A DNA stretch of 64,000 nt from Nitrospirota bacterium (GCA_016222905.1 JACRPZ010000017.1:4319-68318), one strand, 5' to 3'; positions 5,138 to 47,013 are shown, numbered from the stretch's first letter. Numbers and translations: made by a program. Notes: generated by a model not told the origin, from the sequence alone.

Positions 5138-5245
5138 TCCCATTATTCCCCTTTTATGAAAGCCCTTAATGAGGCATCCTGGACGCTATTTGCTTCTGTG
5201 CCAAGTGTCTCCGCCCCCTCATCCTGCATCCAGAGAATCTTAACT

Positions 5246-5290: not shown

Positions 5291-5305
5291 AGCAGGAGGT
5301 GATCT

Positions 5306-5728
5306 ATGAAACCGCGAATTACAGTAATTACATTGGGAGTGGACGATCTGGAAAGATCACTTAAATTCTATCGTGACGGACTCGGCCTGCCGACAGAGGG
5401 AATTATCGGCAAGGAATTTGAGTACGGCGCTGTCGCGTTCTTTAATCTGCAAAACGGCGTGATGCTTGCCCTCTGGCCGCGAAAGAGTATTGCTCTTGAC
5501 TCAACAATTCCTCTTCAGCCGCCGAGCAGCACTGAAGTTACCATCGGGCATAACGTAAACAGCAAAGAAGAAGTGGACGCGGTTATGAAGCAGGCAAAAG
5601 AAGCGGGCGCAAAGATAGTCAAATCTGCCCAAGATACCTTTTGGGGCGGTTATGCCGGTTATTTTCAAGACCCCGATGGCCATTTGTGGGAAGTGGTCTG
5701 GAATCCGCAGATGAAGATAGAAGATTAG
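5306..5728 (+). CDS. VOC/glyoxalase-bleomycin resistance family protein
   Basis: 140 aa of two beta-alpha-beta-beta-beta modules. Conserved FQDPDGHLWEV near the C-terminus. Strong RBS. Confidence 0.8.
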   Translation: MKPRITVITLGVDDLERSLKFYRDGLGLPTEGIIGKEFEYGAVAFFNLQNGVMLALWPRKSIALDSTIPLQPPSSTEVTIGHNVNSKEEVDAVMKQAKEAGAKIVKSAQDTFWGGYAGYFQDPDGHLWEVVWNPQMKIED

Positions 5729-5730
5729 TG

Positions 5731-5757
5731 TAACGTTAGGCGTAACATGTTATAATT
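5731..5757 (+). promoter_or_regulatory. Palindromes taacgtta and taacatgtta overlapping a TATAAT -10 box; putative HigA operator and promoter
   Basis: A perfect 10-bp palindrome at 5743..5752 overlaps tataat at 5751..5756, just upstream of higB. Confidence 0.35.
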
Positions 5758-5763
5758 TAAATA

Positions 5764-6042
5764 ATGATAAGGTCTTTCAGGCACAAAGGTCTTGAAAAAT
5801 ATTTCTATGATGGAGATAAAAAAGGAATTAACGTTCAGCATGCGAACAGGCTTGGACGAATTCTTGATCGTTTAGACGCTTCTATATCCCCTCAGGATAT
5901 GAATTTGCCCGGTTTTAAATTACATGAGCTTAAAGGGAAAGAAAAAAGCGTCTGGGCAGTCTGGGTGAGTGGTAATTGGCGAGTAACGTTTAAATTTCAT
6001 GGAAACGATGCAATACTCGTTGATTACCGTGATTACCACTAA
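5764..6042 (+). CDS. higB: HigB-type toxin (RelE/ParE superfamily, plasmid-maintenance killer protein)
   Basis: 92 aa. MIRSFRHKGLEKYFYDG...WRVTFKF is the characteristic HigB signature. Confidence 0.85.
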   Translation: MIRSFRHKGLEKYFYDGDKKGINVQHANRLGRILDRLDASISPQDMNLPGFKLHELKGKEKSVWAVWVSGNWRVTFKFHGNDAILVDYRDYH

Positions 6043-6061
6043 TTTGAGAGGAGGATTAAGT

Positions 6062-6352
6062 ATGACTGGAAAAAGAAAACCCGTTCATCCCGGAGAAGTT
6101 TTGAGTGAAGATGTTATTAAGCCTTTGGGACTTACGGTAACTGAAGCTGCAATGAAGCTGGGAGTTGCCAGAAAAACATTGTCTACCTTATTGAATGGCA
6201 AAGCATCATTAAGTCCTGACATGGCGGTAAGAATAGCAAAAGCAACTAATACATCTCCGGAGAGTTGGTTATATATGCAGGCAAAGTTGGACATCTGGAT
6301 TGTAGCCAGGAAATTACCAAAAGTTCAAGAGCTTAAAGCAATCGCTGTATAA
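6062..6352 (+). CDS. higA: HigA antitoxin (XRE-type HTH)
   Basis: HPGEVLSEDVIKPLGLTVTEAAMKLGVARKTLSTLLNGK is the HigA HTH. AGGAGG RBS sits 8 nt upstream. Immediately follows higB. Confidence 0.85.
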   Translation: MTGKRKPVHPGEVLSEDVIKPLGLTVTEAAMKLGVARKTLSTLLNGKASLSPDMAVRIAKATNTSPESWLYMQAKLDIWIVARKLPKVQELKAIAV

Positions 6353-6379
6353 GAAAAGAGTCTGTTTACTTCACTCACC

Positions 6380-6480
6380 CGGATTTTTCTGTTAAACTCT
6401 CCTCATGCCTATAATTAAGGTCGAAGGCTTTCAAAGAAGTTCGGGGACTTGACTGCCGTCAACAATGTCTCTTGACCCAT
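6380..6480 (+). repeat. Partial duplicate of the ABC ATPase 5' region (copy of about 9187..9290)
   Basis: ctcctcatgcctataattaaggtcgaagg...gttcggggacttgactgccgtcaacaatgtctct is about 90% identical to the real ABC gene start. The reading frame is disrupted, so this is a pseudo start. Confidence 0.8.
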
Positions 6481-6618
6481 CGTTCAGGTATGAAATAAAT
6501 GGATGCAGGCTTGTCTATTGCGTTCCATCTGATAGCGAAACGGACACGAACGTCTTTAACCCCGAAGAAGGACGATGGCGATGACATATGAAGAAGGTTT
6601 TCGGTATACTCATGGATT

Positions 6619-9006
6619 ATGGACGAACAGACCCTCCGCGTTCTTGAATTCGATAAGATACTCAGGATGGCTGCCGGCTTTGCGGTGACGGTCCCAGGCA
6701 GCGAGCTTGTCAGGAAAACAGCGCCGCTGAAGACCGCCGGCTATGCAAGGCAACGGATAAACCTCATTTCAGAGTGCAGGAGATTCGTCTCCGAAGGAAA
6801 GCATTTCGGGATTGAGCATTTTGACGATCTCTCATCATTTTTCCGAAGGGTAAGACCGGCTGATTCCGTGCTCATCCCCATGGATCTGAGATCATTCCTG
6901 CCGATCCTCTATTCCGCTTTAAACTTAAGAATGCTGGGCGAAGATTCGGAATATCAGGGCATAGGCGCTATCGCGTCTACACTCTCAACCCATCCGGAGA
7001 TAATGAAGGCGATTGAGCGCTCTATAGACTGGGACGGAGAGATCAGTGACAGCGCTAGCCCTGAGCTCTCTTCCATAAGACGGGCGATCCGGTCATGTGA
7101 AACCAAGATAAAAACTCTCCTTGAAGGGATTCTGAAACAGGAGGACCTCCAGCAGCACCTTCAGGACTTCTATCTTGCCGAACGTAACAACCGATGGGTC
7201 GTCCCCGTAAAGACAGACTCCAAAGGCAGCGTGCCCGGGATTGTCCATGACATCTCAAATACGGGAGAGACGGTCTATGTTGAGCCTTACGCGATCCAGC
7301 ACCTTGGAAATGAGCTCGAATCCCACAGGGCGGAAGAGAAGCTCGAGGAGTATAGGATACTGAGGAGTCTCTGCTCACTCATAAGAGAACACCTCAAAGC
7401 AATTGAAGATGATTATCGTATTGTCGCTGAGATCGACGCTCTTCAGGCGATTGCAGGATTTTCCGACCAGATGGGCATGTCCGCTCCTGAAATTAATGAA
7501 GAGGGATACGTGCGCATCATTCACGGACGGCACCCGCTTTTGTGGAAGACACTCAGGAGGGAGAAACGTGAAAACGACCTCGTCCCGCTCGACCTGGAAT
7601 TGGGGAGGGGACATTCCTGCATGGTCATTACCGGTTCGAATGCGGGCGGGAAGACAGTCGCTCTTAAGACGATCGGCGTGCTCTGTCTCATGGCCCTTTG
7701 CGGTATGCATACGCCCTCGGATTCCGGTACGACATTCCCGTTCCTTAAGCGCGTCTTTGCCGACATCGGGGACGACCAGTCCATAGAGCAAAACCTATCG
7801 ACCTTCTCTGCCCACATCAGGCGTATTTCGGATATCGTAAAGCGGAGCGGAAGCGGCACTATGATCATTATCGATGAGCTGGGAACAGGTACATCCCCTG
7901 AAGAGGGCGGCGCTCTCTCCTGCGCCATCCTGCGAAAGATCAGGGCACTCGGCGCCATATCGGCCGTATCCACCCATCTCGGCACCCTCAAGGTATTTGC
8001 CCATTCGGAACCCGGCATGATAAACAGCGCCATGGAGATGGCGGCGGTAGTTGTAAGCGGCAAACCGACACATAAACCTACATATAAACTGGTAGTCGGT
8101 GAACCGGGAACCTCTCATGCCTTTGAGATAGCCGGTTTGCTCGGACTGCCTGATGAGATTATTAAAGAGGCACGGGCCTTTATTACTGAAGAAGACGCGG
8201 CTGTCGAATCGCTCATTTCAGAGCTGAAGAAGAGGACGGTGGAATTAAACATGAGACTGAAAGAGGTGGAAACGATGAGGTCAGAGGCTGAACATCTACG
8301 GCTGTCCATGGCGCAAGAACTCTCACGGCTCAAGATCCTGGAGAAAGAGACTCACGCTGAAGCCTTGAAGGAGGCGGAGGAGTTTTTGCAGAAGACAAAG
8401 AGAGAGGCGAGGGATATCGTCGATGCGATGAAGCGGGCCAAACTTGAGGAGGCGCAAGAGATGGTTAAAGGGCTTGATAAGATAAGCGATGAAGTCGCGA
8501 CCGCCAGCAGGCAATATCTCCCTGATAAGAAGAGACTCACATATGTGCGCACAGGACAGCATGTCTTCGTTCATATTCTCGGCAAAACAGGCGTGGTCCG
8601 GACTGTCAACGAGAAGTCCAAAAGATGCCAGGTGCTCGTTGAAGGCAGAGAGATCGCGGTTCCATTTAAAGAGCTTTCTGAAGTTGAACCTGACATCACT
8701 GCCAGCGAGAAGTCTGATGACACAGGCAAAGAAAGGCTGTCTCTTTCCAAGCCCGAGCTCTTGCATCTTCCGACCGAACTGAACCTTATCGGCCAGCGTG
8801 TAGACCCCTCTCTCTCAAAAATAGAACGCTTCCTTAATGACGCCTCAATGGCAGGGGCGGCGCAGGTAAAGATAATTCACGGATACGGGACCGGCATCCT
8901 TTCCAGAGCTGTAAGGGATTACCTGAAAGACCACCCGCTGGTTGAAAGTTTCAGAAAAGGCAATGAAGAAGAAGGCGGAAATGCGGTCACAATAGTCTTG
9001 CTGTAG
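6619..9006 (+). CDS. mutS2: Endonuclease MutS2 (MutS family with a C-terminal Smr domain)
   Basis: 795 aa. Walker A ITGSNAGGKTVALKT and DELGTGT. C-terminal Smr domain (LIGQRVDPSL...IIHGYGTGILSRAV). Confidence 0.9.
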   Translation: MDEQTLRVLEFDKILRMAAGFAVTVPGSELVRKTAPLKTAGYARQRINLISECRRFVSEGKHFGIEHFDDLSSFFRRVRPADSVLIPMDLRSFLPILYSALNLRMLGEDSEYQGIGAIASTLSTHPEIMKAIERSIDWDGEISDSASPELSSIRRAIRSCETKIKTLLEGILKQEDLQQHLQDFYLAERNNRWVVPVKTDSKGSVPGIVHDISNTGETVYVEPYAIQHLGNELESHRAEEKLEEYRILRSLCSLIREHLKAIEDDYRIVAEIDALQAIAGFSDQMGMSAPEINEEGYVRIIHGRHPLLWKTLRREKRENDLVPLDLELGRGHSCMVITGSNAGGKTVALKTIGVLCLMALCGMHTPSDSGTTFPFLKRVFADIGDDQSIEQNLSTFSAHIRRISDIVKRSGSGTMIIIDELGTGTSPEEGGALSCAILRKIRALGAISAVSTHLGTLKVFAHSEPGMINSAMEMAAVVVSGKPTHKPTYKLVVGEPGTSHAFEIAGLLGLPDEIIKEARAFITEEDAAVESLISELKKRTVELNMRLKEVETMRSEAEHLRLSMAQELSRLKILEKETHAEALKEAEEFLQKTKREARDIVDAMKRAKLEEAQEMVKGLDKISDEVATASRQYLPDKKRLTYVRTGQHVFVHILGKTGVVRTVNEKSKRCQVLVEGREIAVPFKELSEVEPDITASEKSDDTGKERLSLSKPELLHLPTELNLIGQRVDPSLSKIERFLNDASMAGAAQVKIIHGYGTGILSRAVRDYLKDHPLVESFRKGNEEEGGNAVTIVLL

Positions 9007-9159
9007 GGCAAGGGCCAATTAGGTTGTTAACTGATACATCAAGCGGCCAATGCCCGCAAGTAAGTCAATAAGGTACATATCAGCAGCAGGAACTGAGCTT
9101 TGCGAGGAAGATAACGGTTCAGGCGGAGCTATAACCCGAGTGACACAAGGGACGGGGGA

Positions 9160-9209
9160 GGCATCAGATGAAGATAGAAGATTAGGGATATTTCTGCTAA
9201 AATCTCCTC
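9160..9209 (+). repeat. Second copy of the VOC 3' end (cagatgaagatagaagattag) fused to the native ABC 5' UTR
   Basis: 9164..9184 is identical to 5708..5728, the last codons and stop of the VOC gene. Confidence 0.75.
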
Positions 9210-10190
9210 ATGCCTATAATTAAGGTCGAAGGCCTTTCAAAGAAGTTCGGGGAGTTGACTGCTGTCAACAACGTCTCTTTTGAAGTAGAAGAAGGGGCCA
9301 TCTTCGGTTTTTTGGGGCCCAACGGGGCAGGCAAGACAACCACCATCAGTATACTCTGTACGCTGCTTTCGCCGACGTCCGGCCGGGCGTCCATCGCCGG
9401 GCATGACTGCGCAAAAGAACCCTCGGAAGTTAGAAAAGCCATAGGGATCGTCTTTCAGGACACAACACTCGACAAGGATCTAACGGCATATGAGAACCTT
9501 ATGTTCCATGCTTACCTCTATGACGTAAAGAAGGGCGAGATGAGAAAGCGCATCGATGACGCGCTGCACTTCGTCGGACTGTTCGAAAGAAGGGACGACC
9601 TCGTGAAAAAATTTTCCGGGGGGATGAAGAGGAGGCTCGAAGTGGCGCGGGGAATTATCCACAGGCCCAGGGTACTGTTCCTCGATGAGCCTACGCTCGG
9701 GCTGGACCCTCAGTCGCGCGCAAACCTGTGGGAGTTCATTATCGGGCTTCAGAGGGAATACAATACGACTATCTTTATGACGACACATTATATGGAAGAG
9801 GCCGAGGTCTGCAATAAGATAGCGATCATCGACAACGGGGATATCATAGCGTCCGGAACACCGGATGAACTTAAAAAGACGGTTGGCGGAGATGTAATTT
9901 ATATCAACACCCCGGACAATCAGAAGGCAAAACTTGAAATAGAGAGGTTGTTCAATGTTGCGGTCACCGAGAAAGACAATGAACTGTTTCTGCCGGCCCT
10001 GAACGGCGACGCCTCCATTCCTGAAATTATAAACGCTGTAGGAGGAAAAGTCCTTTCCGTAAGGCTTCAGAGACCCACGCTGAATGACGTCTTTCTGAGA
10101 ATGACAGGCAGGCAGATCAGGGAGCAGAACGGGTCTGCCGAAGATACGGTCAGAGAATCGGTCCGGGCTTACAGGAGGCGGCATGGTTGA
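9210..10190 (+). CDS. ABC transporter ATP-binding protein
   Basis: Walker A GPNGAGKTTT, signature FSGGMKRRLEVARG, Walker B VLFLDEPTLGLD. Confidence 0.9.
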   Translation: MPIIKVEGLSKKFGELTAVNNVSFEVEEGAIFGFLGPNGAGKTTTISILCTLLSPTSGRASIAGHDCAKEPSEVRKAIGIVFQDTTLDKDLTAYENLMFHAYLYDVKKGEMRKRIDDALHFVGLFERRDDLVKKFSGGMKRRLEVARGIIHRPRVLFLDEPTLGLDPQSRANLWEFIIGLQREYNTTIFMTTHYMEEAEVCNKIAIIDNGDIIASGTPDELKKTVGGDVIYINTPDNQKAKLEIERLFNVAVTEKDNELFLPALNGDASIPEIINAVGGKVLSVRLQRPTLNDVFLRMTGRQIREQNGSAEDTVRESVRAYRRRHG

Positions 10191-10941
10191 GGCAAACGCC
10201 GTTTATGTGCTTATCGCGAGGGACTTCAAAAAGTTTGTGAGGGAAAAAAGCAGGCTCGTTTCCACGCTCGCCCGCCCGCTCATCTGGCTCTTTCTTGTCG
10301 GAGGCGGCATGTCGAGGTTCGTGTCGCCGGGCGATGGCGTCACGTATATGCAGTTCATATTTCCCGGGATACTCGGCATGACGATCCTCTTCAGTTCGAT
10401 ATTCTCTTCCATATCCATTATCTGGGACAAAGAGTTCGGCCTGATGAAAGAGATACTGGTCGCGCCGGTTTCGAGGCTTTCCATCGTTATCGGAAAGGCG
10501 CTCAGCGGCACCATCATCTCCACTATACAGTGCGCCATTATCCTTTTCCTCTTTCCTTTTATCGGCATCAAACTGGGCCTGACGGCTATACCTTACACCA
10601 TAGCGATTGCCTTCCTCCTTGCGTTCTGCATATCCGCGCTGGGCATCGTCATCGCTACCTTCATCGAGAACATGGAGAGTTTCAGCGCCATCATGAACTT
10701 CATAGTGATGCCAATGTTCTTCCTGTCCGGGGCCATGTATCCTGTGCAAAAACTTCCCGATATTTTAAAACTGGTCGCGAAGCTGAACCCGCTGACGTAT
10801 GGGATAGACGCGCTGAAGCATTCCATATTCCGGGGCTCCGTGGTGCCCGATTTCCCGCTCCTTGCGGACCTGGGCGTCCTGGCAGTCTCGTCAATCGTAT
10901 TTGTGATCGCTGCCGGATATTTTTTCGAGAGAAAGAAGTAA
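10183..10941 (+). CDS. ABC-2 family transporter permease
   Basis: 252 aa with six predicted TM segments. Overlaps the ATPase gene by 8 bp (translational coupling). Confidence 0.85.
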   Translation: MVEANAVYVLIARDFKKFVREKSRLVSTLARPLIWLFLVGGGMSRFVSPGDGVTYMQFIFPGILGMTILFSSIFSSISIIWDKEFGLMKEILVAPVSRLSIVIGKALSGTIISTIQCAIILFLFPFIGIKLGLTAIPYTIAIAFLLAFCISALGIVIATFIENMESFSAIMNFIVMPMFFLSGAMYPVQKLPDILKLVAKLNPLTYGIDALKHSIFRGSVVPDFPLLADLGVLAVSSIVFVIAAGYFFERKK

Positions 10942-20284: not shown

Positions 20285-20361
20285 AAATAGCTTGTTGTGA
20301 CGCGCGCAAGGGGGAGCATTAGCCGCTCCCCCTGAATTCCTTGGTCACCGGAGGATTTTCA

Positions 20362-21132
20362 ATGTTGGGAAGGACGCTCTGGAAAGGGTATATCCAATTC
20401 AGCGATATCAATGTGCCCGTGAAGCTGCATACCGCGGTGCAGCAGGATCGTATACAGTTTCATCTTCTGCACAAGCGTGATCATGTAAAATTGCACCAGC
20501 AAATGATCTGTGCGTATGAAAAAGTGCCCGTACCGCCGGAAGAACAGGCAAAAGGTTTTGAGCTGGAAGACAGAAAATATATCCTTGTCGATCCGGCAGA
20601 GCTCGAACAGGCCGATCCAAAAGACGGCCGGATGATCGAAGTCCACGAATTCGTCAAAGCCGGAGAGATCGCCCCTGTCTTCTTTGAACGCATGTACTAT
20701 CTGGAGCCCGATACCACCGTAAAAGAATACAGCGCGCTTGCCGGTGCATTGAAGGAAACGGGTGCGGCGGGCATCTGCACCTGGACCATGAGAAGGCGGT
20801 CCTATCTCGGGGCCTTGCAGATAAACGGGAAGGTCCTCTGCCTGAGCACCCTGAGATATGCCGATGAGGTTGTTCAGGCAAAAGCTCTCGAACTGCAGAA
20901 AGCCCCGCTGTCTGAAAAAGAACTGAAGATCGCAAGGGACCTGATCGATCAGTTGTCAGCCCCTTTTCAGCCGGAGAAATTCAAAAACGAACATCACAAA
21001 AAGCTTCAGGACTTGATAGATAAAAAAGCACGCGGAGAAAAAATCGTGCTCCTGCGTCCAAGACATTTAAAACCCACAGCGCCGGACAAACTTCTTGAGG
21101 CGCTTAAGGCGAGCATGAAGAAGGTCGCGTGA
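20362..21132 (+). CDS. ku: Ku protein (NHEJ)
   Basis: MLGRTLWKGYIQFSDINVPVKLHTA matches the Ku N-terminus. An alternative upstream start at 20341 adds 7 aa. Confidence 0.85.
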   Translation: MLGRTLWKGYIQFSDINVPVKLHTAVQQDRIQFHLLHKRDHVKLHQQMICAYEKVPVPPEEQAKGFELEDRKYILVDPAELEQADPKDGRMIEVHEFVKAGEIAPVFFERMYYLEPDTTVKEYSALAGALKETGAAGICTWTMRRRSYLGALQINGKVLCLSTLRYADEVVQAKALELQKAPLSEKELKIARDLIDQLSAPFQPEKFKNEHHKKLQDLIDKKARGEKIVLLRPRHLKPTAPDKLLEALKASMKKVA

Positions 21133-21149
21133 AGTATAAAAAGAAAAAA

Positions 21150-21250
21150 ATTAACCACAGAGAACACTGAGGTTACAGAGAGAGACTTAAAAATCTTTAA
21201 AAAATATTTTATTTTTTTCTCTGTGTACTCTGTGACCTCTGTGGTGAGAA
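21150..21250. promoter_or_regulatory. Imperfect inverted repeat (ccacagagaacactgaggttacagagag / ctctgtgtactctgtgacctctgtgg) around an AT-rich spacer, between the two ku genes
   Basis: Read directly from the sequence. Could be an attenuator, terminator or operator. Confidence 0.3.
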
Positions 21251-21253
21251 TTT

Positions 21254-22051
21254 TTGAGGAATGAAATGGCCTTACAGGAAATATGGAACGGTACAATAAG
21301 TTTCAGCCTGGTTGCGATCCCGGTAAAACTGGTCAGGGCTGTCGAGGCCGGGCGTGTCTCTTTTCGCAAGCTCCACAGCAAAGATTATTCGCCCCTCGCA
21401 AGAAAAATGTATTGTCCGAAAGAAGAAACAATAGTCCCGGCGGATGAGATAGTCAGGGGCTATGAGATCGCTCCCGATAAATACATAGTGATAACGGACA
21501 AAGAGCTGGAATCCGTATCTCCCGAACGAAGCCGCACGATCGAGATCATCGAGTTCATAGACATCAAGGATGTGGACCCGGTCTATTATGATCACCCGTA
21601 TTATCTTGTTCCTTCAAAGGGGGGAGAAAAGGCTTACCGGCTGCTGGTCGAGGTGCTGGACCGGACGCACAAGGCCGGGCTTGCAAAATTCGTTCTGCGG
21701 GAGCGTGAATATCTCGTTGCGGTCAAGAGCACGGACGGGGCACTGGCACTGATCACACTTCACTACAGCGGAGAAATACTTCCTGATGAGGACCTCGTGC
21801 CGAAAGAAGAAAAAGCTGAATCTGAAGAGAAGAGCCGCATGAAAAAGATCATTAAAAAAATGACCGCTGACTTCCATCCGGACAAATATGCTGACGAACG
21901 CCGGAAAAAGATCACAAAACTCCTGGAGAAGAAAGCGAAAAAACAAGGTACGGTCGAGGCGCCTGAGATCGAGGAGGAAGTAGAAGAAGGTGTGGTCGAT
22001 CTGGTCGCTGTTCTGGAGGAGAGCATGCGTAAAGTGAAAGAGCACAAGTGA
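21254..22051 (+). CDS. ku: Ku protein, second paralog
   Basis: LQEIWNGTISFSLVAIPVKLVRAVE is a Ku N-terminus. Lys-rich C-terminal tail. Possible alternative start at 21266. Confidence 0.85.
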   Translation: MRNEMALQEIWNGTISFSLVAIPVKLVRAVEAGRVSFRKLHSKDYSPLARKMYCPKEETIVPADEIVRGYEIAPDKYIVITDKELESVSPERSRTIEIIEFIDIKDVDPVYYDHPYYLVPSKGGEKAYRLLVEVLDRTHKAGLAKFVLREREYLVAVKSTDGALALITLHYSGEILPDEDLVPKEEKAESEEKSRMKKIIKKMTADFHPDKYADERRKKITKLLEKKAKKQGTVEAPEIEEEVEEGVVDLVAVLEESMRKVKEHK

Positions 22052-22968
22052 ACAGAAAAGTTGTTGAAGCTGCCGGGAAAAGACTTTCCTTGTCGAACCT
22101 GAAAAAGGACCTCTATCCCTCCTATGGTTTCACGAAGGCCCAAGTCCTTGATTACTACCGCAAGATAGCGGACTTCATCCTGCCGCATTTGAAAGACCGG
22201 GCGCTGACCTTAAAGCGCTACCCGGACGGAACGGAAAAGGATTACTTTTTCGAGAAGCGCTGTCCTGTGCATCGTCCAGCCTGGGTGAAAACAGCAGAGG
22301 TGCATCATAAAGAAGTGCGCTTGACAGCCTGCCTTGTCAACGATCTCGAAACGCTCATATGGGTAGAGAATCTTGCGTCACTTGAGCTGCATGTGCCTCT
22401 GGCAAGGGCCGGCTCCCCTAAGACGCCCGATTCCATAGTTTTTGATCTTGATCCAGGCGATAAGGCAGACATTCTGGATTGCTCGAAGGTAGCCATGATA
22501 CTTAGAGACCTGCTCTCCCAAATGAAGCTTGCAAGCTATCTAAAGACCTCAGGCAAAAAAGGACTCCACGTATATGTCCCATTGAACCGCAAAGAGGCGA
22601 CCTTTGAGGAGACCAAGAAATTTTCTAAAGCCGTGGCAGAAGTCCTGCAGCGCAACTATCCTGAACTGGTCACCGCAAAAATGACGAAGGAAGAGCGGAC
22701 AAAGAGGGTCTTCATCAACTGGTCTCAGAACGACCCCTCAAAGACAATGATCTGCGTATACTCACTTCGCGCAGGTGAAAAACCGGTCGTCTCGTTCCCT
22801 CTTGAATGGGAGGAACTGGAAATGCTGGCTAAAAAGGGTGATCCTAAAAAGTTCAGGATCCTGCATTCGGAGGCTGTGAGCAGGTTAGAGAAAAAAGGCG
22901 ACCTTTTCCGGGAACTTCTCACTAAAAAACAGAAGCTGCCGTTAGGCAGCTCTGATACATTGAGGTAA
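22048..22968 (+). CDS. ligD: LigD polymerase/primase domain protein (stand-alone NHEJ polymerase)
   Basis: KRLSLSNLKKDLYPSYGFTKAQVLDYYRKIADFILPHLKDRALTLKRYPDG is the classic LigD Pol-domain N-terminus. 4-bp ATGA overlap with ku. Confidence 0.85.
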   Translation: MNRKVVEAAGKRLSLSNLKKDLYPSYGFTKAQVLDYYRKIADFILPHLKDRALTLKRYPDGTEKDYFFEKRCPVHRPAWVKTAEVHHKEVRLTACLVNDLETLIWVENLASLELHVPLARAGSPKTPDSIVFDLDPGDKADILDCSKVAMILRDLLSQMKLASYLKTSGKKGLHVYVPLNRKEATFEETKKFSKAVAEVLQRNYPELVTAKMTKEERTKRVFINWSQNDPSKTMICVYSLRAGEKPVVSFPLEWEELEMLAKKGDPKKFRILHSEAVSRLEKKGDLFRELLTKKQKLPLGSSDTLR

Positions 22969-22974
22969 ACGCAT

Positions 22975-23244
22975 ATGTGCAGAAACATCAAGACCCTCTT
23001 CAACTTCGAACCGCCCGTGACCGACGACGAGATACGCGAGGCCGCGCTACAATTTGTGAGAAAAGTAAGCGGATTTCACAAGCCGTCGAAGGCCAACGAA
23101 GTTACATTCCTTGAGACTGTTGAAGAGATAGCTGCAGCTTCCAAAAAACTTCTTAGCTCGCTTGAGACGAACGCGCCGCCAAAGGACCGCGCGGAAGAGG
23201 CTGCCAAGGCGCGGGCACGCGCTGCAAAGAAGTTTTCAAGGTAA
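22975..23244 (+). CDS. Small conserved protein, probably DUF2277 family
   Basis: 89 aa. MCRNIKTLFNFEPPVTDDEIREAALQFVRKVSGF resembles the DUF2277 N-terminus. Confidence 0.5.
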   Translation: MCRNIKTLFNFEPPVTDDEIREAALQFVRKVSGFHKPSKANEVTFLETVEEIAAASKKLLSSLETNAPPKDRAEEAAKARARAAKKFSR

Positions 23245-23245
23245 C

Positions 23246-24829
23246 ATGGGATTAAGAGAATACAAAACCAAACGGAAATTCGGGAAAACGCCGGAGCCTG
23301 AGCCGAAGGAACGCACTGAAGGAGACCAACTCATTTTTGTCGTGCATAAGCACGCGGCGCGAAACCTCCATTATGACCTTAGGCTTAAGATGGATGGTGT
23401 TCTCAAGAGCTGGGCTGTGCCGAAGGGGCCTTCGCTGGATCCTTCTATAAAAAGGCTCGCCATGATGGTTGAAGACCACCCGTTTGATTACAAAGATTTT
23501 GAAGGCGTCATACCTGAGGGTAATTACGGAGCCGGGAGCGTGATCATCTGGGACAGGGGATTTTATCGTCATCCTTCAGTAAAAGACAAAAAGGAAAGTG
23601 AAAAGCTTCTCAGGGACGGATTAAAAAAGGGCGACCTGAAGTTTGTGCTCAATGGAAAAAAGCTTCAGGGAGAATTCGCCCTTGTGAGGATGCGGAAAGA
23701 TGAGAAGTCATGGCTGCTTATTAAGAAAAAAGACCGGCATGCAAGTGAAGTATCCATTTTGAAAGAGAACCGTTCCGCAGTATCGGGTAAGACCCTGGAG
23801 GATGTTGCCGAAGCCGGGCCGAGGGAATCTTTCAAACAAAAGAAAGTGAAACAGATACGCCTGCGTGAAGCTCTGGAGGATGAAGACTTGAAGGATGCAC
23901 CGGTTGGCCCGATGCCGCACAATATAAAACCTATGCTTGCGACCCTGGTCAAAAAACCGTTCGATCATCCGGACTGGATCTTTGAGATGAAATGGGACGG
24001 ATACCGGGCCATTGCCGAGATCCGGGATGGTGATGTTTCGATTTATTCCCGCAACCGGATATCATTCACGCAAAAGTTTCTTCCCATTACCGATGCACTG
24101 CGGAAACTCGGATTTGATGCTCTTCTGGACGGAGAGATCGTTGTTGTTAATGATCAGGGACATCCTGATTTCGAGATGCTGCAGAATTATCAAAAATCAG
24201 GAAGCGGTCATCTGCTCTATTACGTCTTTGATCTCCTTCACTTCCGGGAACATGATCTGACGGGCTTGCCACTGCTCAGGAGAAAAGAACTCCTGAAAAA
24301 AATCCTCCCGTCATCCCCAAAAATAAAATTCAGCGATCACGTATTGAAAGAGGGCATTCTATTTTTCAATGTCGTCAGGGAAAAAGGACTTGAGGGGATG
24401 ATCGCCAAGCATTCTCAAAGCGCGTACCAAGCGGGTAAAAGAAGCAGGCAGTGGCTGAAGGTGAAGGCGCGGCTCACGCAGGAGTGCGTGATCGCGGGGT
24501 TCACGGAACCTGGAGGCGGCAGAAAATATTTCGGTTCTCTTGTCCTAAGCATGTATGATGAGGACGAGTTGAAATACATCGGTCATTCAGGAGGCGGGTT
24601 CGAGGAAAAAGATCTAAAGGTAATATTCAATAAATTGAAGCCGCTGATCCAAAAAAAATGCCCCTTTAAGATTGAGCCTGAGACCAATACCCCTGTCACA
24701 TGGGTAAAGCCGGAACTCGTCTGCGAGGTCACTTTCACAGGCTGGACTGAAGACGGCATCATGAGGCAGCCCGTTTTTCTGCGGCTGCGCGAGGATAAAC
24801 CCGCTCGCGAAGTTGTGAAGGAGAATTGA
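23246..24829 (+). CDS. ligD: LigD 3'-phosphoesterase domain fused to an ATP-dependent DNA ligase domain
   Basis: HYDLRLKMDGVLKSWAVPKGPSLDP is the phosphoesterase domain. KxDG motif EMKWDGYRAI in the ligase domain. Starts 2 bp after the previous gene. Confidence 0.85.
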   Translation: MGLREYKTKRKFGKTPEPEPKERTEGDQLIFVVHKHAARNLHYDLRLKMDGVLKSWAVPKGPSLDPSIKRLAMMVEDHPFDYKDFEGVIPEGNYGAGSVIIWDRGFYRHPSVKDKKESEKLLRDGLKKGDLKFVLNGKKLQGEFALVRMRKDEKSWLLIKKKDRHASEVSILKENRSAVSGKTLEDVAEAGPRESFKQKKVKQIRLREALEDEDLKDAPVGPMPHNIKPMLATLVKKPFDHPDWIFEMKWDGYRAIAEIRDGDVSIYSRNRISFTQKFLPITDALRKLGFDALLDGEIVVVNDQGHPDFEMLQNYQKSGSGHLLYYVFDLLHFREHDLTGLPLLRRKELLKKILPSSPKIKFSDHVLKEGILFFNVVREKGLEGMIAKHSQSAYQAGKRSRQWLKVKARLTQECVIAGFTEPGGGRKYFGSLVLSMYDEDELKYIGHSGGGFEEKDLKVIFNKLKPLIQKKCPFKIEPETNTPVTWVKPELVCEVTFTGWTEDGIMRQPVFLRLREDKPAREVVKEN

Positions 24830-40424: not shown

Positions 40425-40446
40425 TGCGGATTATCTCTTCTTTTCT
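40425..40446 (+). repeat. Direct repeat of the tkt 3' end (gcggattatctcttcttttcta); second copy at 41513..41534
   Basis: 22/22 identical. Flanks a 1.07 kb segment carrying the killer/antidote pair. Confidence 0.8.
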
Positions 40447-40554
40447 ATATCTGCCCTTGCGGCATCTACCCCTTGCAAGAATTTACACAAGAGTCTTGAC
40501 ACTACCAATGCCTGATAGCTGGTTTAATTTTATTAATAGTAAAATAAAAACAGA

Positions 40555-40704
40555 ATGGGTTATGAGGCAAAGAAGACGGAACATTCAGGGGCAAAGAAGG
40601 GTTGCGGCGCTTACTGGGGACGGAAGGCAGACGCTAAAAAGCAGAGCAATCGTAAGCGTCGTGAAATAAATAAAACACTTACTAAGGCAGCAAGAGGAGC
40701 TTAA
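40555..40704 (+). CDS. Possible small basic protein (49 aa, MGYEAKKTEHSGAKKGCGAYWGRKADAKKQSNRKRREINKTLTKAARGA)
   Basis: ATG ORF inside the inserted segment. Weak RBS. Not in the ORF track. Confidence 0.2.
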   Translation: MGYEAKKTEHSGAKKGCGAYWGRKADAKKQSNRKRREINKTLTKAARGA

Positions 40705-40726
40705 CAATGGAGACCACCGTAGGAAT

Positions 40727-41038
40727 TTATGCATAAGCCTGTTTCTGTGCCTTTACAGTAAGCGCCAGACCCATGGCGCTAAGCAGCGTCATCAGGCTTT
40801 TTATTTCAGGGTTGCCGCGCTTTGAAAGCATGCGATAAAGATTCTCCCTGTTTAGATGCGCCTTTTCCGCTATTGCCGATATTCCGCCTTGAGCTTTAGC
40901 AATGTTTCTGAGAGCGAGCAGGAACAATTCACGGTCTCCTTCTTCAATTGCAGCATTTAGATATGCAGCAGCCTCTTTAGGTTTTTTCAGACTTTCAATA
41001 AGGTCTTCCTGATAACTTTTTTTTGGTTTTGCGGCCAT
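40727..41038 (-). CDS. Addiction-module antidote protein (HigA-like HTH antitoxin)
   Basis: 103 aa. LNAAIEEGDRELFLLALRNIAKAQGGISAIAEKAHLNRENLYRMLS is typical of this family. Confidence 0.75.
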   Translation of the reverse strand: MAAKPKKSYQEDLIESLKKPKEAAAYLNAAIEEGDRELFLLALRNIAKAQGGISAIAEKAHLNRENLYRMLSKRGNPEIKSLMTLLSAMGLALTVKAQKQAYA

Positions 41039-41043
41039 TTATA

Positions 41044-41379
41044 TCACCTCCGTTTACGTTTAAATGTTTTCCAGTATTCCTTTGCATGAGCAATATCTTT
41101 ACTTTGTGACGCCTTATCTCCTCCAAGCAGGAGCAAAACAATTGCGTCACCGGCAAATGCATAATACACGCGGTATCCGGGACCAAAATCTATTTTCAAT
41201 TCGTGCATGCCTTCACCAACAGACCTGGCATGCCCAAAGTTTCCGAGACTTATTCGGTCAAGAGCAATGCGAATCTTTGCGCGGGTATGAATATCTTTAA
41301 GTCTCTCAAGCCAGTCCTTAAACGGAATCTTGCCGGTTTCAGTAATGAAATATTCAAGCGTGAAATGGCATGGTTTCAT
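41044..41379 (-). CDS. Addiction-module killer protein (RelE/HigB-like toxin)
   Basis: 111 aa. FKDWLERLKD...RIALDRISLGNFGHARSVGEGMHELKIDFGPGYRVYYAFAGDAIVLLLLGGDK is the family signature. 5 bp upstream of the antidote gene. Confidence 0.8.
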   Translation of the reverse strand: MKPCHFTLEYFITETGKIPFKDWLERLKDIHTRAKIRIALDRISLGNFGHARSVGEGMHELKIDFGPGYRVYYAFAGDAIVLLLLGGDKASQSKDIAHAKEYWKTFKRKRR

Positions 41380-41518
41380 CGAGCTTATAATAGCTTATAA
41401 GCTACATATTGTCAAGAGAACGAGAATGGTAAATAAATCTATTTTGTAAAATCAGCAAGAAAAAAAGATGACAAGGGTAATGCCTTAAAAGTTCATTTAA
41501 CATTAAGAATTAAGCGGA

Positions 41519-43579
41519 TTATCTCTTCTTTTCTAACTCTTCCTTGGCAGCAGCGACTATCCTCTCAACAGTAAAGCCGAAATTCTTTTGAAGATCTTTA
41601 AAGGGCGCTGAGGCTCCGAACCTGTGCATGCCGATGATCTGCCTGTTGCCGACATACCGTTCCCATCCAAATGTTGATGCCTCTTCAACCGCAACACGGG
41701 CAATGACAGAAGGTGGAAGGACGCTGTCGCGGTAGACCTGATCTTGCTCTTCAAATAGCTCCCATGAAGGCATGCTTACAATACGAGCATTTATTCCTTC
41801 TCTCTTGAGCTCTTCAAAGGCCTCGATACATAGCGAGACTTCGCTTCCTGTTGCGATAAGTATAATATCTGGCTTATTATTCTCTGCGTCAGCCAGCACA
41901 TACGCCCCCTTAGCGAGCCCCGAAGCAGGCGCATATTTTGCGCGGTCGAGCGTGGGTATGGATTGTCTTGACAGCATAAGGGCTGCGGGCCTGTCACGGA
42001 ACTGCATGATCACTCTCCACGCTTCAACAACTTCATTGGCATCTGCAGGTCGCAATGTAATGAGGCCGGGCATTGCCCGTAATGAGGCAAGATGTTCTAT
42101 CGGCTGATGTGTGGGGCCGTCTTCGCCGAGGCTGATTGAGTCATGAGTAAAGATATAGATAACCGGAAGCTCCATCAGCGCGCCCAGCCGTATCGCAGGC
42201 CGCGCGTAATCGCTGAAGATGAGGAATGTCGCACCATAAGGGCGGATATTGGATAAAGCCATGCCGTTAAGTATGCCTGCCATAGAATGCTCACGAACTC
42301 CGAAGTGCATATTACGTCCTCCCGGATTTTCCGCATTGAGATCCCCGGTGCCTTCAAAAGTAAGCAGGGTTTTTGTTGAGGGGGCAAGGTCAGCCGAACC
42401 GCCTATAAGCCATGGGACATTTTTGGCTATAGCGTTAAGCACCTTACCTGAAGATACGCGGGTGGCTGTGCCTTTTGCGTCAGCCGGAAAGACCGGCAGG
42501 TCTTTATCCCACCCTTCGGGTAACTGCCTGCGCTGCATCATATATAATTGATCGGTGAGATCAGGATATTTTCTGCTGTACTCATCAAACTTTTCCGACC
42601 ATGCTTTGTAAAGCTCTGCGCCTCGTTTGCCCAAGCCTGAACGAAGATGCTCTCGCACTTCATCGGGAACGAGAAACTTTGCGTCCTCAGGCCAGCCGAA
42701 ATTCCGCTTGGCCGATCTTACCTCATCTTCTCCAAGCGGCTCGCCGTGCGCTGACGCGGTGTCCTGTTTATTCGGCGCGCCGAATGCGATATGACTTTTG
42801 ACAATTATTATTGTAGGCCTGTCGTTAGTTTTTTTAAATAATGTTAATGCATCCGCAATGCCTGTCAGATCATTGGCATCATTAACATCTATCACGTTCC
42901 AATGGTAGCCTTTAAAGCGTGTTGCAACATCTTCGCTGAATGCCAGAGCAGTGCCGCCTTCTATCGTGATCTTATTATCATCATATATCCAGCAGAGATT
43001 TGAGAGTTTAAGATGTCCGGCGATGGATGCGGCCTCTCCTGAAACCCCTTCCATCATATCACCGTCGCTGCAAAGCGCATAAACATCATGATCAAAGAGC
43101 TCAAAGCCGGGGCGGTTGAAGCGCGCTGCCATCCATCTTCCGGCAATCGCCATACCCACGCTGTTTGCCGCGCCTTGTCCTAATGGGCCTGTGGTTGTCT
43201 CAACCCCTGTTGCCAATCCATGTTCAGGATGTCCGGGGGTTTTGCTGTGAAGCTGGCGGAAGTTTTTAATATCATCAAGCTCGACCGAGAGCTTATCAAG
43301 TATCTTGCCGTCATCATCCGCTCTCTTCACATTGTAGAGATGGAGTATGGAATAAAGAAGCATTGAGGCGTGCCCCATGGAGAGTACAAAACGGTCGCGG
43401 TTTAGCCATAGCGGATTTTCAGGGTCAAAGCGGAGAAAATGCTGCCATAGAGTATATGCCACAGGAGCCATCGCCATTGGCGTGCCCGGATGGCCTGAGT
43501 TCGCCTGCTGAACAGCATCCATAGAGAGGGTGCGGATGGTGTTGATGCAGAGAATGTCAAGCCGGTTCTTGTCTGTCAT
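41519..43579 (-). CDS. tkt: Transketolase
   Basis: 686 aa. ANSGHPGTPMAMAP, the GDG TPP motif CSDGDMMEGVS, HDSISLGEDGPTHQPIE. Confidence 0.95.
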   Translation of the reverse strand: MTDKNRLDILCINTIRTLSMDAVQQANSGHPGTPMAMAPVAYTLWQHFLRFDPENPLWLNRDRFVLSMGHASMLLYSILHLYNVKRADDDGKILDKLSVELDDIKNFRQLHSKTPGHPEHGLATGVETTTGPLGQGAANSVGMAIAGRWMAARFNRPGFELFDHDVYALCSDGDMMEGVSGEAASIAGHLKLSNLCWIYDDNKITIEGGTALAFSEDVATRFKGYHWNVIDVNDANDLTGIADALTLFKKTNDRPTIIIVKSHIAFGAPNKQDTASAHGEPLGEDEVRSAKRNFGWPEDAKFLVPDEVREHLRSGLGKRGAELYKAWSEKFDEYSRKYPDLTDQLYMMQRRQLPEGWDKDLPVFPADAKGTATRVSSGKVLNAIAKNVPWLIGGSADLAPSTKTLLTFEGTGDLNAENPGGRNMHFGVREHSMAGILNGMALSNIRPYGATFLIFSDYARPAIRLGALMELPVIYIFTHDSISLGEDGPTHQPIEHLASLRAMPGLITLRPADANEVVEAWRVIMQFRDRPAALMLSRQSIPTLDRAKYAPASGLAKGAYVLADAENNKPDIILIATGSEVSLCIEAFEELKREGINARIVSMPSWELFEEQDQVYRDSVLPPSVIARVAVEEASTFGWERYVGNRQIIGMHRFGASAPFKDLQKNFGFTVERIVAAAKEELEKKR

Positions 43580-46133: not shown

Positions 46134-46242
46134 ATTAAAACATAGACCGGTTAATGATGAAATGACAAATGATAATCAAATGGGCATTAAGCAGTATAAC
46201 TAAATTGGTAGGTCAGGTTTTGTCATGAATATCATGAAGAAA

Positions 46243-46330
46243 CAATGAAACTTTTCATCCCGCAGAAGATCGAACAATACGCTGCTGAATACACCAGCCC
46301 GCGTTCCCCGCTCTTCATAAACCTTGTTTT
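46243..46330 (+). repeat. Duplicated 5' fragment of the O-methyltransferase gene (MKLFIPQKIEQYAAEYTSPRSPLF)
   Basis: atgaaacttttcatcccgcagaagatcgaacaatacgctgctgaatacaccagccc is similar to 47014..47070. Confidence 0.75.
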
Positions 46331-46400
46331 TGTATTCAAATTTGAATACAATTGTATTCACTGGGATTAATTCAAATATTAAGCGTATGGAGGTGATTTA

Positions 46401-46607
46401 ATGGGTAGTAGGACATTAACCATGCCTGAAGATGCTCTCGTCAACATGCTGAAGACCCTGCCTGAAGATATGTTGATAGATGTCTTCTGGAGAACTGTTG
46501 TGGAAAGCGATATTTCCTCTCTTACTAAAGAAGAAAGAGAACTTATCAGCAAAGGCAAAGCCGAGCATAAAAAAGGCGAAACCATTAAATGGCAAAATTT
46601 GAGATAG
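46401..46607 (+). CDS. Putative antitoxin of the RelE/ParE-type toxin that follows
   Basis: 68 aa, small and acidic. GGAGG RBS. 19-bp overlap with the toxin gene. Confidence 0.5.
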   Translation: MGSRTLTMPEDALVNMLKTLPEDMLIDVFWRTVVESDISSLTKEERELISKGKAEHKKGETIKWQNLR

Positions 46608-46840: not shown

Positions 46841-47013
46841 AAGAAAGCCCCGCGTTGCTTCAAAATCCGTCAGAAGTTATAGATCCTCCGCGATAAAGAC
46901 ACTTTACATTTGTAATTGTCCATAAGAAGACTGTTTAAAAGAACATTAATATTAGTTGTGATAAAATTTGGACATGACTTATCTTGATAGTTCACTGCTG
47001 TTTTGAGGAAAAG

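Follow-up and report, generated by a model that had tools for sequence, protein, structure and literature searches.

Probable insertion of a mutS2 fragment with long target duplication, followed by a higBA cassette, at a VOC-ABC operon joint in Nitrospirota

In a stretch of Nitrospirota DNA of 64,000 nucleotides (hereafter the window), a higBA toxin-antitoxin (TA) pair and mutS2 lie between a VOC/glyoxalase-family gene and an ABC-2 exporter, and the end of the former and the start of the latter occur a second time beside them. How did these genes come to lie there, and where do the additional gene ends come from? The initial annotation had read the arrangement as nested duplications of an ancestral VOC-ABC junction that was filled with the TA module and mutS2. 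We analyzed the repeats, their counterparts in related genomes and the genes between them.

Results

Repeats at the VOC-ABC junction

Self-comparison of the window confirmed the repeats. The 21-mer CAGATGAAGATAGAAGATTAG (repeat A), corresponding to VOC codons 134–140 and TAG, occurs exactly twice, at 5708–5728 and at 9165–9185; the two copies are indeed exact and the first had been located correctly, but the second had been placed one base off (9164–9184). When up to three mismatches were allowed, there were still two matches in the window, with an expectation of 0.01 (100 shuffles). The block with the start of the ABC ATPase gene (repeat B) likewise has a degenerate copy (B′) just after higBA, as the initial annotation had noticed, and we refined the limits of both (Table 1). 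Positions 9186–9279 and 6381–6473 are 92.6% identical over 94 columns (BLAST E = 2e-25). As judged from strain L100, in which B′ is undeleted and 98 nt long, the original duplicated block extends to 9283 (TTGA) and B thus comprises 98 nt; in the window, B′ is frameshifted by a 1-nt deletion and then a 2-nt deletion. The repeat is real, but its earlier label 'RBS' is loose, since no obvious Shine-Dalgarno motif was found in the 24-nt ABC leader. A and B are contiguous (9185|9186) at the second copy only, whereas exactly 652 nt separate them at the first. Together they make up a 119-bp unit (A, 21 nt; B, 98 nt) that flanks the fragment called X here, and its two copies are identical at 110 of 119 positions.

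Table 1 Features of the VOC-ABC locus, and other features discussed, in the window
Feature	Coordinates	Strand	Remarks
VOC/glyoxalase-family gene	5306..5728	+	140 aa, intact; Pfam PF00903, E = 1e-20
higBA cassette	5729..6380	+	652 bp, self-contained; higB 5764-6042, higA 6062-6352, 28-nt tail
B′	6381..6475	+	Dead left-hand copy; ABC leader and first 24 codons
Fragment X	6476..9164	+	2,689 bp, presumably captured chromosomal DNA; nfo remnant, mutS2, 158-nt tail
nfo 3′ end	at least 6528-6618	+	Dead, ~90 nt; frameshifted, stop-containing; upstream of mutS2
mutS2	6619-9006	+	795 aa, intact; TIGR01069, 726 bits (cut-off 400), residues 3-795
Tail of X	9007-9164	+	158 nt, follows mutS2
A, copy 2	9165..9185	+	Exact copy; orphan VOC 3′ end including stop, abuts B directly
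B	9186..9283	+	Functional copy; 24-nt leader and first 24 ABC ATPase codons
ABC-2 exporter, DrrA/DrrB-type	9210..10941	+	Intact right neighbour; ATPase 9210-10190, permease 10183-10941
Ku, Ku, LigD primase-polymerase, LigD phosphoesterase + ligase	20341..24829	+	NHEJ genes, assigned with Pfam
Second scar	40426..41557	-	Transketolase 44-nt 3′ end duplicated; R 41514-41557, R′ 40426-40469
Third scar	46235..47082	+	O-methyltransferase 79-nt 5′ start duplicated; R′ 46235-46313, R 47004-47082

Empty and filled sites in relatives

Two close relatives, L097 and L102, whose ABC ATPase is 98% identical at the amino acid and 95% at the nucleotide level, have the VOC gene directly followed by the ABC gene, joined at A|B as in the second copy of the window. 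Here a single, unbroken copy of the repeat is present (2075–2194 in L097, 44–163 in L102), and these are thus empty sites. The alignment of window positions 9165–10955 to these genomes begins within the last 21 nt of their VOC genes, showing that A|B represents a real junction of VOC and ABC; the orphan copy of A, which L100 also has, was aligned to the true VOC 3′ end of both. Pairwise comparisons of the L097 target with copies 1 and 2, and of the copies with each other, gave 91–92% identity. The VOC orthologues in L097 and L094 show 90% nucleotide identity, and the exporter, which exceeds the cut-offs of TIGR01188 (347 bits) and TIGR01247 (226 bits), shows 94–95% to L097, L098, L099 and L102. 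In the close relatives L098 and L099, a DinB-like gene lies upstream of ABC, and VOC does not adjoin ABC in L101 (ABC 83%) or in 80 relatives at 56–77% identity. The junction can be called ancestral within a shallow clade, but not beyond it. L100, a 3.5% diverged strain assembled independently in another study, has higA-B′-mutS2-A-B in one contig, making a mis-assembly very unlikely.

The fragment with mutS2

The GC content of X (52%) is like that of core genes. MutS2 contains PF00488 (MutS_V ATPase) and a C-terminal PF01713 (Smr), no match to PF01624 (MutS-I mismatch domain) was found with Pfam, and the predicted protein has the features of Endonuclease MutS2. In seven more distant relatives (50–78% MutS2 identity), mutS2 has a different, conserved neighbourhood (fam3-fam6-mutS2-fam4-fam1; two of the seven have nfo immediately before mutS2), and none of these neighbouring genes is present in the window. 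This other context and the nfo remnant in X indicate that mutS2 is not native to the VOC-ABC site. The joints B′|X and X|A lack microhomology, which is compatible with end joining, though not diagnostic of it.

Comparison of syntenic regions thus found VOC and ABC adjacent in L097 and L102 and mutS2 elsewhere in the seven relatives. The empty sites, the nfo remnant and L100 support the earlier proposal that a VOC-ABC junction was duplicated and filled with the TA module and mutS2. As a refinement, one 119-bp duplication of A and B around the mutS2 fragment, and a separate insertion of higBA without duplication, describe the locus better than nested duplications do.

The higBA cassette

HigB matches PF05015 (E = 4e-21) and HigA TIGR02607 (103 bits, cut-off 48). 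The predicted operator palindromes TAACGTTA and TAACATGTTA at 5731–5750 and a TATAAT form an operator/promoter stretch (5731–5757). With the toxin gene first, an HTH antitoxin and a palindromic operator, the pair has the predicted make-up of a type II TA system of the HigBA kind. The GC content of the cassette is 39%, compared with 46% for the window. Its insertion point lies exactly between the VOC stop and the copy-1 ABC leader, without duplication. The cassette is absent from L097 and L102; distant relatives of higBA are found on Leptospira plasmids. We looked for terminal inverted repeats on the cassette and on X and found none. A deletion between both A copies would take out higBA.

Other scars, end-joining genes and mobility genes

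The duplication of neighbouring-gene fragments that had been reported at two other TA modules of the window is real as well. The repeats are 82% identical over 44 nt (E = 6e-4) at the transketolase gene, where they enclose 1,044 bp with a Gp49/HI1420 TA pair (GC 41%), and 85% identical over 79 nt (E = 1.6e-15) at the O-methyltransferase gene, where the insert is 690 bp long and carries a ParE-type TA pair (GC 37%). In both scars, the extra copies keep the frame, and the differences are mostly at third codon positions or conservative replacements. The three scars of the window have no sequence in common.

The NHEJ genes match PF02735 (twice), PF21686, and PF13298 + PF01068 + PF04679; as they lie outside the scar, they are only candidates for its enzymology. 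No integrase, transposase or IntI was found among the main ORFs of 1–32 kb scanned with Pfam, no tRNA in the whole 64-kb window, and no attC-like ends on the insert.

Discussion

History of the locus

We propose, with a probability of roughly 60%, that two successive insertions into the tight VOC-ABC operon joint produced the locus, the first of them by recombinase-independent break repair. In this first event, a 2,689-bp fragment with arbitrary cut points would have been moved or copied from a native-type nfo-mutS2 locus, with duplication of a 119-bp target that consists of the last 21 nt of VOC, the 24-nt leader and the initial 74 nt of ABC. This duplication let VOC retain its own end and ABC its own start, and what remains on either side of the insert would be nonfunctional copies of the ABC start (B′) and of the VOC end (the second copy of A). 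In the second event, a foreign, low-GC higBA of 652 bp with its own promoter/operator would have entered between B′, by then useless, and the VOC stop, with no target duplication.

The alleles record the history of the first event; enzymologically, it would be a matter of end joining or of break repair. A captured linear fragment could have bridged a pair of staggered breaks spaced about 119 bp from each other, or unequal sister-chromosome ends, with subsequent fill-in, and the end-joining system Ku/LigD of the host is a plausible catalyst. Bacterial NHEJ is not known to generate duplications of about 100 bp. That the scars span gene ends is explained by selection, since a gene works only if the insertion duplicates its end.

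Alternative explanations

It is rather unlikely that the integration was anchored by homology, with one repeat copy coming from a donor. Circularised DNA with a copy of the VOC-ABC joint and the mutS2 fragment could have entered by a single Campbell-type crossover; alternatively, linear X-A-B-ABC DNA of a sister lineage could have undergone a homologous crossover in ABC-perm and an illegitimate join 98 nt into the resident B. Homology-facilitated illegitimate recombination is known from several bacteria, and the dS of ABC-perm to relatives (0.16–0.24), compared with about 0.5 for the flanking VOC and ADH, indicates that the ABC-perm module was exchanged by recombination. Moreover, the functional B has three lineage-specific changes and the dead B′ one (three sites are unpolarised), so that B has changed at least as much as B′, which does not match simple decay of the dead copy and leaves room for a copy imported through recombination. 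The extra copies in the other two scars, with their preserved frame and third-position differences, resemble diverged functional orthologues. VOC fragments are present at several further joints of the locus, indicating that homologous recombination between VOC copies also shaped the region. However, the junction of X with the terminal 21 nt of VOC would have to exist in the donor beforehand, which merely shifts the problem, and about 100 fetched loci included no suitable donor. In addition, B and B′ have a derived CTCC state in common (relative to three outgroups), and, of the 21 sites in the second copy of A, all match the resident VOC end but two differ from L097 and L102. These two observations favour a duplication in situ.

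Short tandem duplications are frequent in bacteria, and a neutral 119-bp tandem duplication, formed by slippage or unequal crossing-over, might have preceded the insertion of X into B′|A and then of higBA into A|B′. The purine-rich sequences TGAAGATAGAAGA (within A) and TGAAGTAGAAGA (after B, 9281–9292) could have served as slippage microhomology. Nevertheless, this succession of three events is quite unlikely: the A copy begins 4 nt left of the putative microhomology, giving end points unlike those of slippage, the bare tandem duplication occurs in no relative, and X must have hit the duplication joint exactly, which is one coincidence more than a single duplicating insertion needs.

If mutS2 were native between VOC and ABC in this clade, L097 and L102 would have lost higBA-B′-X, and direct-repeat recombination between the A copies would be expected to restore VOC-A-B-ABC exactly. 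Such a loss is very unlikely, since the repeats themselves would still need an insertion or duplication event, mutS2 is accompanied by the nfo remnant and has its other conserved context in seven relatives, and L098, L099 and L101 have no mutS2 beside ABC either.

Exact 21-bp direct repeats that bound a 3.4-kb segment and overlap a gene 3′ end recall att sites, but an integrase islet or integron-like cassette with A as its att core is hardly credible. It would leave B′ unexplained, the cargo has arbitrary limits and includes a truncated neighbour gene, the scars of the window share no common sequence, and the recombinase genes, the tRNA, the terminal inverted repeats and the attC-like ends that such an element might show were not found in the scans described above. 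The same recombinase-free ORFs (1–32 kb) and tRNA-free window led us to reject an integrase-mediated integrative element, and an IS element or DNA transposon was rejected because transposase, terminal inverted repeats and a 2–14 bp duplication are all absent, the duplication being 119 bp long. Finally, an assembly chimera is extremely unlikely, even though assemblies at k=31 (Logan contigs L001 and L002) end precisely at a 31-mer common to B and B′: a single contig of L100 crosses higA-B′-X-A-B, B and B′ are distinguishable to the left and to the right of this 31-mer, and pairing the branches the other way would yield a mutS2 circle of 2.8 kb, which is implausible.

Comparison with known systems

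[quoted passage not shown] 2000, Gene 259:99; Furuta, Abe & Kobayashi 2010, PMC2853133), with other cargo. Target duplications of 46–420 bp over gene starts and stops, without mobility genes, were reported for restriction-modification (R-M) genes (PMC2853133). As in those cases, direct repeats, tens to hundreds of bp long and single-copy at the empty site of a relative, enclose an insert of a few kb; they cover a start or stop and so leave the target genes whole; neither transposase nor integrase is present; and the cargo is often an addiction-type module. Repeats of more than 30 bp and an insert below 20 kb without mobility genes were found here. The published screens required R-M cargo, and double-strand cleavage by the R-M genes' own products was proposed as the cause (PMC2853133). 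Here, in contrast, the cargo in an uncultured, NHEJ-encoding Nitrospirota is an nfo remnant with mutS2, and the other two scars contain TA pairs. This cargo weakens the idea that its own DNA cleavage is the cause and points to break repair by the host.

In Sinorhizobium meliloti, NHEJ-dependent capture of linear DNA into chromosomal breaks was found experimentally (PMC6379672; Dupuy, Sauviac & Bruand 2019). It resembles the present case in that arbitrary fragments are inserted independently of recombinase and homology, the joints are homology-free, and the host encodes Ku and LigD. However, those experiments used a defined I-SceI break and gave small deletions at the joints rather than flanking duplications of about 100 bp (PMC6379672). 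NHEJ may have had a role at the mutS2 scar. Homology-facilitated illegitimate recombination and displacement arrays, such as those of T6SS effector-immunity genes in Vibrio cholerae (PMC5361080), also place new modules beside a conserved gene end, where pieces of the earlier end persist as orphans. Those events rely on a long stretch of homology as anchor and substitute the new DNA for resident DNA, whereas nothing was lost here and both repeat copies appear to descend from resident sequence. Integrase-borne islands have att repeats that overlap a gene 3′ end and bound foreign DNA, but they differ from this locus, which has no integrase, no tRNA/tmRNA target, repeats specific to each scar and arbitrary cargo ends.

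Chromosomal type II TA modules are regarded as horizontally mobile, region-stabilising cassettes (reviews PMC2654758, PMC7167474). The compact, low-GC higBA with its own operator, its patchy distribution and its position in a variable region resembles them, and one may speculate that it stabilises the captured mutS2.

Implications

The case is clean and could be reconstructed in full: two strains carry the filled allele, two relatives the empty one, and the native source locus can be identified. It extends insertion with long target duplication beyond R-M genes to an ordinary core DNA-repair gene and TA pairs, and indicates that insertion into a very tight operon joint is tolerable, as duplication of the joint keeps both genes. 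It is possible, if doubtful, that such insertion is a general recombinase-free break-repair route, maybe Ku/LigD-dependent, that Thermodesulfovibrionia-type Nitrospirota have used repeatedly. This route would capture foreign addiction modules and pieces of the own core genome alike, the only visible mutS2 would have been relocated into a stress/DNA-damage neighbourhood (VOC, DrrAB-type exporter, Ku, LigD), and break-repair capture would have left a natural record in the three scars of this 64-kb window.

For annotation, the scars explain orphan gene-end fragments and spurious chimeric ORFs near TA modules in these metagenome-assembled genomes, and the B/B′ repeats explain why short-k assemblies break there. 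One such spurious chimeric ORF, of 60 aa, was called in L100.

Architecture of the VOC-ABC joint

The sequence CAGATGAAGATAGAAGATTAG, which comprises the last seven codons of the VOC gene and its TAG stop (repeat A), is present in exactly two exact copies in the 64-kb window, at 5708-5728 and 9165-9185. Allowing up to three mismatches still gave two matches (0.01 expected from shuffles). The start of the ABC ATPase gene, i.e., a 24-nt leader and the first codons, occurs intact at 9186-9279 and in degenerate form at 6381-6473 (92.6% identity, E = 2e-25). By comparison with L100, a contig of a second strain with the same filled site, the duplicated ABC-start block (repeat B) originally extended to 9283 and was 98 nt long. 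Its left copy in the window, B', carries a 1-nt deletion and then a 2-nt deletion that put it out of frame, and A and B are contiguous at 9185|9186 only. Both duplications had been recognized in the initial annotation, where the second copy of the VOC end was placed one base off, at 9164-9184; its interpretation of the locus as a duplicated VOC-ABC joint filled with higBA and mutS2 is supported here with some refinements. The mutS2 gene was identified as a TIGR01069 equivalog (726 bits vs a cut-off of 400) with MutS_V and Smr domains.

Features of the VOC-ABC locus in window coordinates
Feature	Position	Details
VOC gene	5306-5728	ends in repeat A
higBA cassette, 652 nt	5729-6380	two operator palindromes over TATAAT; higB 5764-6042; higA 6062-6352; 28-nt tail
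B'	6381-6475	decayed left copy of repeat B
Inserted fragment, 2,689 nt	6476-9164	mutS2 6619-9006, with 143 nt upstream and 158 nt downstream
Repeat A, second copy	9165-9185	
Repeat B and exporter	9186 onward	intact DrrA/DrrB-type ABC-2 exporter, 9210-10941

The structure is present in a second strain

Two k=31 Logan contigs matched the window exactly over 4356-6427 and 6399-9232, with the break at the sole 31-mer common to B and B'. Because B and B' share this 31-mer, assemblies are fragmented here, and the Logan contigs are unable to phase the repeat. L100, an ENA contig from another study (name prefix k141) that is 96.5% identical to window 6229-9243, runs uninterrupted from higA through its tail, B', the inserted fragment and A into B within a single contig. 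Therefore, the structure is present in at least two diverged strains, and this independent study makes mis-assembly at the junctions, a possibility raised in the initial annotation, very unlikely. The undeleted B' of L100 leaves open a 60-aa chimeric ORF (L100 177-359), in which the first 24 ABC codons are fused to the nfo-remnant region and which was called as a gene. The frameshift that interrupts this ORF in the window makes it a probable artefact of annotating across the insertion scar.

VOC and ABC genes in relatives

Four close relatives were reached via ABC ATPase homologues with 95-98% amino acid identity (loci L097, L098, L099 and L102). The direct adjacency of VOC and ABC presupposed in the initial annotation is indeed found in L097 and L102, where the ABC leader comes immediately after a VOC gene that is complete or represented by its 3' end. 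Window 9165-10955 gave a 95% alignment to these two loci that starts within the final 21 nt of their VOC gene, and the L097 target and the two window copies are mutually 91-92% identical. L097 and L102 are thus empty sites. In L098 and L099, a DinB-like gene, not VOC, lies upstream of the same leader, and homology to the window begins exactly at 9186. Whether VOC or DinB-like, the upstream gene has its stop 0-1 nt from the leader GGATTTTTCTG, and higBA is inserted at the same bond.

VOC was absent beside ABC in L101, a locus with 83% ABC identity, and in 80 metagenome loci whose ABC orthologues are 56-77% identical. Its absence from these 80 loci confines the adjacency to the closest clade; the adjacency is therefore real but young.

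Order and age of the events

Since A and B are contiguous in the right-hand copy, higBA arrived after the duplication. Both events are likely to be older than the split between the window strain and L100 (mutS2 dS 0.08). In the most parsimonious reading, they would be younger than the split from L097 and L102 (ABC dS 0.21); secondary loss, in which these relatives would once have had the insertions, is the less parsimonious alternative.

Repeats B and B' differ at six sites and by indels. They have in common the derived state CTCC, against L097, L098 and L099, and the second copy of A equals the resident VOC end exactly, with two sites differing from L097 and L102. The joint CTCC state and the identity of the second A copy favour a duplication of resident sequence in place over its main rival, a Campbell-type integration or homology-facilitated illegitimate recombination with a donor copy. 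An oddity is that three polarised changes fall in the functional B and one in B', three further sites being unpolarised.

Origin of the inserted DNA

MutS2 proteins with 50-78% identity were found in ten Nitrospirota/Thermodesulfovibrionia genomes, seven of which have the common neighbourhood fam3-fam6-mutS2-fam4-fam1; in two of these seven, nfo (deoxyribonuclease IV, TIGR00587) is the immediate upstream neighbour and overlaps the start of mutS2. The neighbours of the native mutS2 locus were found nowhere in the window; what precedes mutS2 there is a dead nfo 3' end with one frameshift and an in-frame stop, which shows ~79-80% nucleotide identity to the fetched loci L006/L008 from 6559-6564 on and is traceable to ~6528. 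Downstream, homology to relatives stops at the mutS2 stop codon. When the flanks 6476-6527 and 9007-9164 were compared by blastn and tblastx with the window and with each of the 102 fetched loci, nothing beyond the nfo remnant matched. The GC content is 52% in the inserted fragment, 51% in the ABC ATPase and permease genes and 39% in the higBA cassette. The nfo remnant and the core-like GC of the fragment indicate that it is a chunk of a native-type nfo-mutS2 locus with arbitrary cut points, so that mutS2 is an immigrant at this site; the low GC of higBA indicates that this cassette is foreign. The nearest plasmid relatives of higBA are Leptospira higBA loci (66-67% nucleotide identity).

The native mutS2 block of another relative, in the fetched locus L003, is bracketed by two copies (9665-9874 and 15783-15998, 89% identity) of a MITE-like element of 217 nt that has terminal inverted repeats, GTTGCATAAAT...ATTTAATGCAAC.

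Divergence between the two strains

The window and L100 differ at 1 of 158 positions in the right flank of mutS2 (9007-9164), 88 of 2,388 in mutS2, 5 of 141 in the left flank and 8 of 97 in B'. The right flank had no Rfam match, significant fold or similarity elsewhere, and the fold of 9000-9215 was no better than those of shuffles (z = -0.47). This near-invariant flank may be constrained as a new promoter or 5' UTR for the ABC ATPase and permease genes, or it may be a recent recombination patch.

Within mutS2, the differences form clusters, with 31 of the 88, including 20 nonsynonymous ones, in the linker before the Smr domain (8609-8807, aa 684-732) and 12 in the coiled-coil part (8211-8409). 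The overall dN/dS of mutS2 is 0.30, vs 0.04-0.11 in neighbouring genes. Relaxed selection on the relocated gene was considered and rejected, since half of the replacements lie within this one disordered linker, which makes dN/dS poor evidence.

Mechanism of insertion

A site-specific element is difficult to reconcile with the lack of integrase, transposase and IntI in Pfam scans of the main ORFs of 1-32 kb, of integrase and transposase at the two other toxin-antitoxin (TA) loci, of tRNA and tmRNA in the window, and of terminal inverted repeats at the ends of both inserts. In an Rfam scan of 4300-11700 (E <= 1), the only matches were two below threshold, near a hairpin at 5099-5136. Another alternative is a slippage duplication that preceded the insertion; slippage microhomology at the duplication ends was rejected because the end points do not fit. 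No microhomology was found at the joints of the inserted fragment with B' and with A.

The observed pattern is a few-kb insert without mobility genes, flanked by ~100-bp direct repeats that cover a stop and a start codon and of which a relative has a single copy. Such a pattern was named 'insertion with long target duplication' by Kobayashi's group (Nobusato 2000; Furuta 2010, PMC2853133). In their cases, repeats over translation starts and stops keep the target genes intact, the cargo consists of restriction-modification genes, and double-strand cleavage by the cargo is the suspected cause (PMC2853133). The insert and repeat pattern is the same here, whereas the cargo is not restriction-modification, which points to host break repair. 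In this scenario, offset breaks or unequal sister-chromosome ends ~119 bp apart would be bridged by a captured linear fragment, followed by fill-in. In S. meliloti, experiments have shown that linear DNA is captured at a break in the chromosome in an NHEJ-dependent manner (PMC6379672). Two Ku proteins and a split LigD are encoded in the window at 20341-24829. To our knowledge, no ~100-bp duplications have been demonstrated for bacterial NHEJ. We infer that break-repair capture with host enzymes was the most likely mechanism. The phenomenon is of a kind that is known but has been little studied; novel here are the core repair gene and TA pairs as cargo, the host lineage and how completely the events could be reconstructed.

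Other scars and variability of the region

The initial annotation had described duplicated fragments of neighbouring genes at other TA modules of the window as well, and two further scars have the same form. In one, a transketolase gene has its last 44 nt duplicated around a 1,044-bp insert with a Gp49/HI1420 TA pair, and in the other, an O-methyltransferase gene has its first 79 nt duplicated around a 690-bp insert with a ParE-type TA pair; the GC content of both inserts is 37-41%. When 816 kb of fetched loci were screened for direct repeats in flanking positions, the matches were mixed and included the MITE in L003.

In the window, one VOC fragment follows the ABC permease (11034-11102) and another lies between the genes for GSDH and CDF (27188-27414); fragments are also found at different joints in L097 (5023-5059), L098 (4220-4260) and L099 (9962-10002 and 1842-2154). 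These orphan pieces include a 71-nt 5' piece (89% identity), a 224-nt 3' piece (86%) and pieces of 37-41 nt in the relatives. VOC copies seem to act as recurrent recombination end points. In the fetched locus L094, a full VOC gene is followed directly by sequence matching window 28146-28273.

L097-L099 lack, between the permease and ADH, a 14-kb block (10951-24933) that ends in Ku-Ku-LigD; L095 and L096, which are more distant, have Ku-Ku-LigD after VOC. The ABC ATPase-permease stretch (9186-10950) has a dS of 0.16-0.24 to L097, L098, L099 and L102, vs ~0.5 for their VOC and ADH genes. The VOC fragments, the absent block and the less diverged exporter genes together mark the region as a hot spot of recombination and insertion, shaped by homologous exchange as well as by illegitimate insertion. 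Besides the two Ku genes and LigD, the block contains an HlyD-RND efflux pair, a DsrC-like gene, a multicopper oxidase, a DNA methyltransferase paired with an unknown partner, and two small genes. In L102, the permease runs instead into the HlyD upstream region (window 11603-11648).

A ~50-nt promoter-like block, TTGACATCGRRACATTATGTGCTATATTTTTCTTATAGG, lies upstream of VOC, the DsrC-like gene and the multicopper oxidase (5242-5291, 18122-18170 and 18576-18596) and, in relatives, upstream of Ku and the DinB-like gene (L095 11863-11901; L099 5305-5364). Its copies are 88-92% conserved, which suggests one regulon, possibly for stress or DNA damage. Another 50-nt element, ACCGCCCCGGCTC...GACTTGAGGCTTT, is found at 4422-4472 upstream of the gene at 4549-5082 and directly after the ABC permease in L097 (3868-3917); with a shorter version at 11012-11030 and in L102, it looks like another small travelling scar.

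Two DNA methyltransferase loci are located in the variable parts flanking VOC, one with a DndB-like gene and an N6/N4 methyltransferase (1178-4195), the other with an N6/N4 methyltransferase and a 314-aa protein without Pfam match (16006-18052). In relatives, this place is taken by other defence genes, namely an MmeI-type methyltransferase with a PIN gene in L095 and RES in L099. Farther away, ~309-nt tandem repeats (93%, 67-73% identity) at 62132-63786 lie inside a minus-strand ORF (62122-63750, 542 aa) that probably encodes a repeat-domain protein. GC-rich hairpin repeats of the CCCCTCAAGGGAGAGGG type, which resemble REP or MITE elements, occur in both orientations at 43644-43684, 44035-44078, 53736-53822 and 59413-59496.
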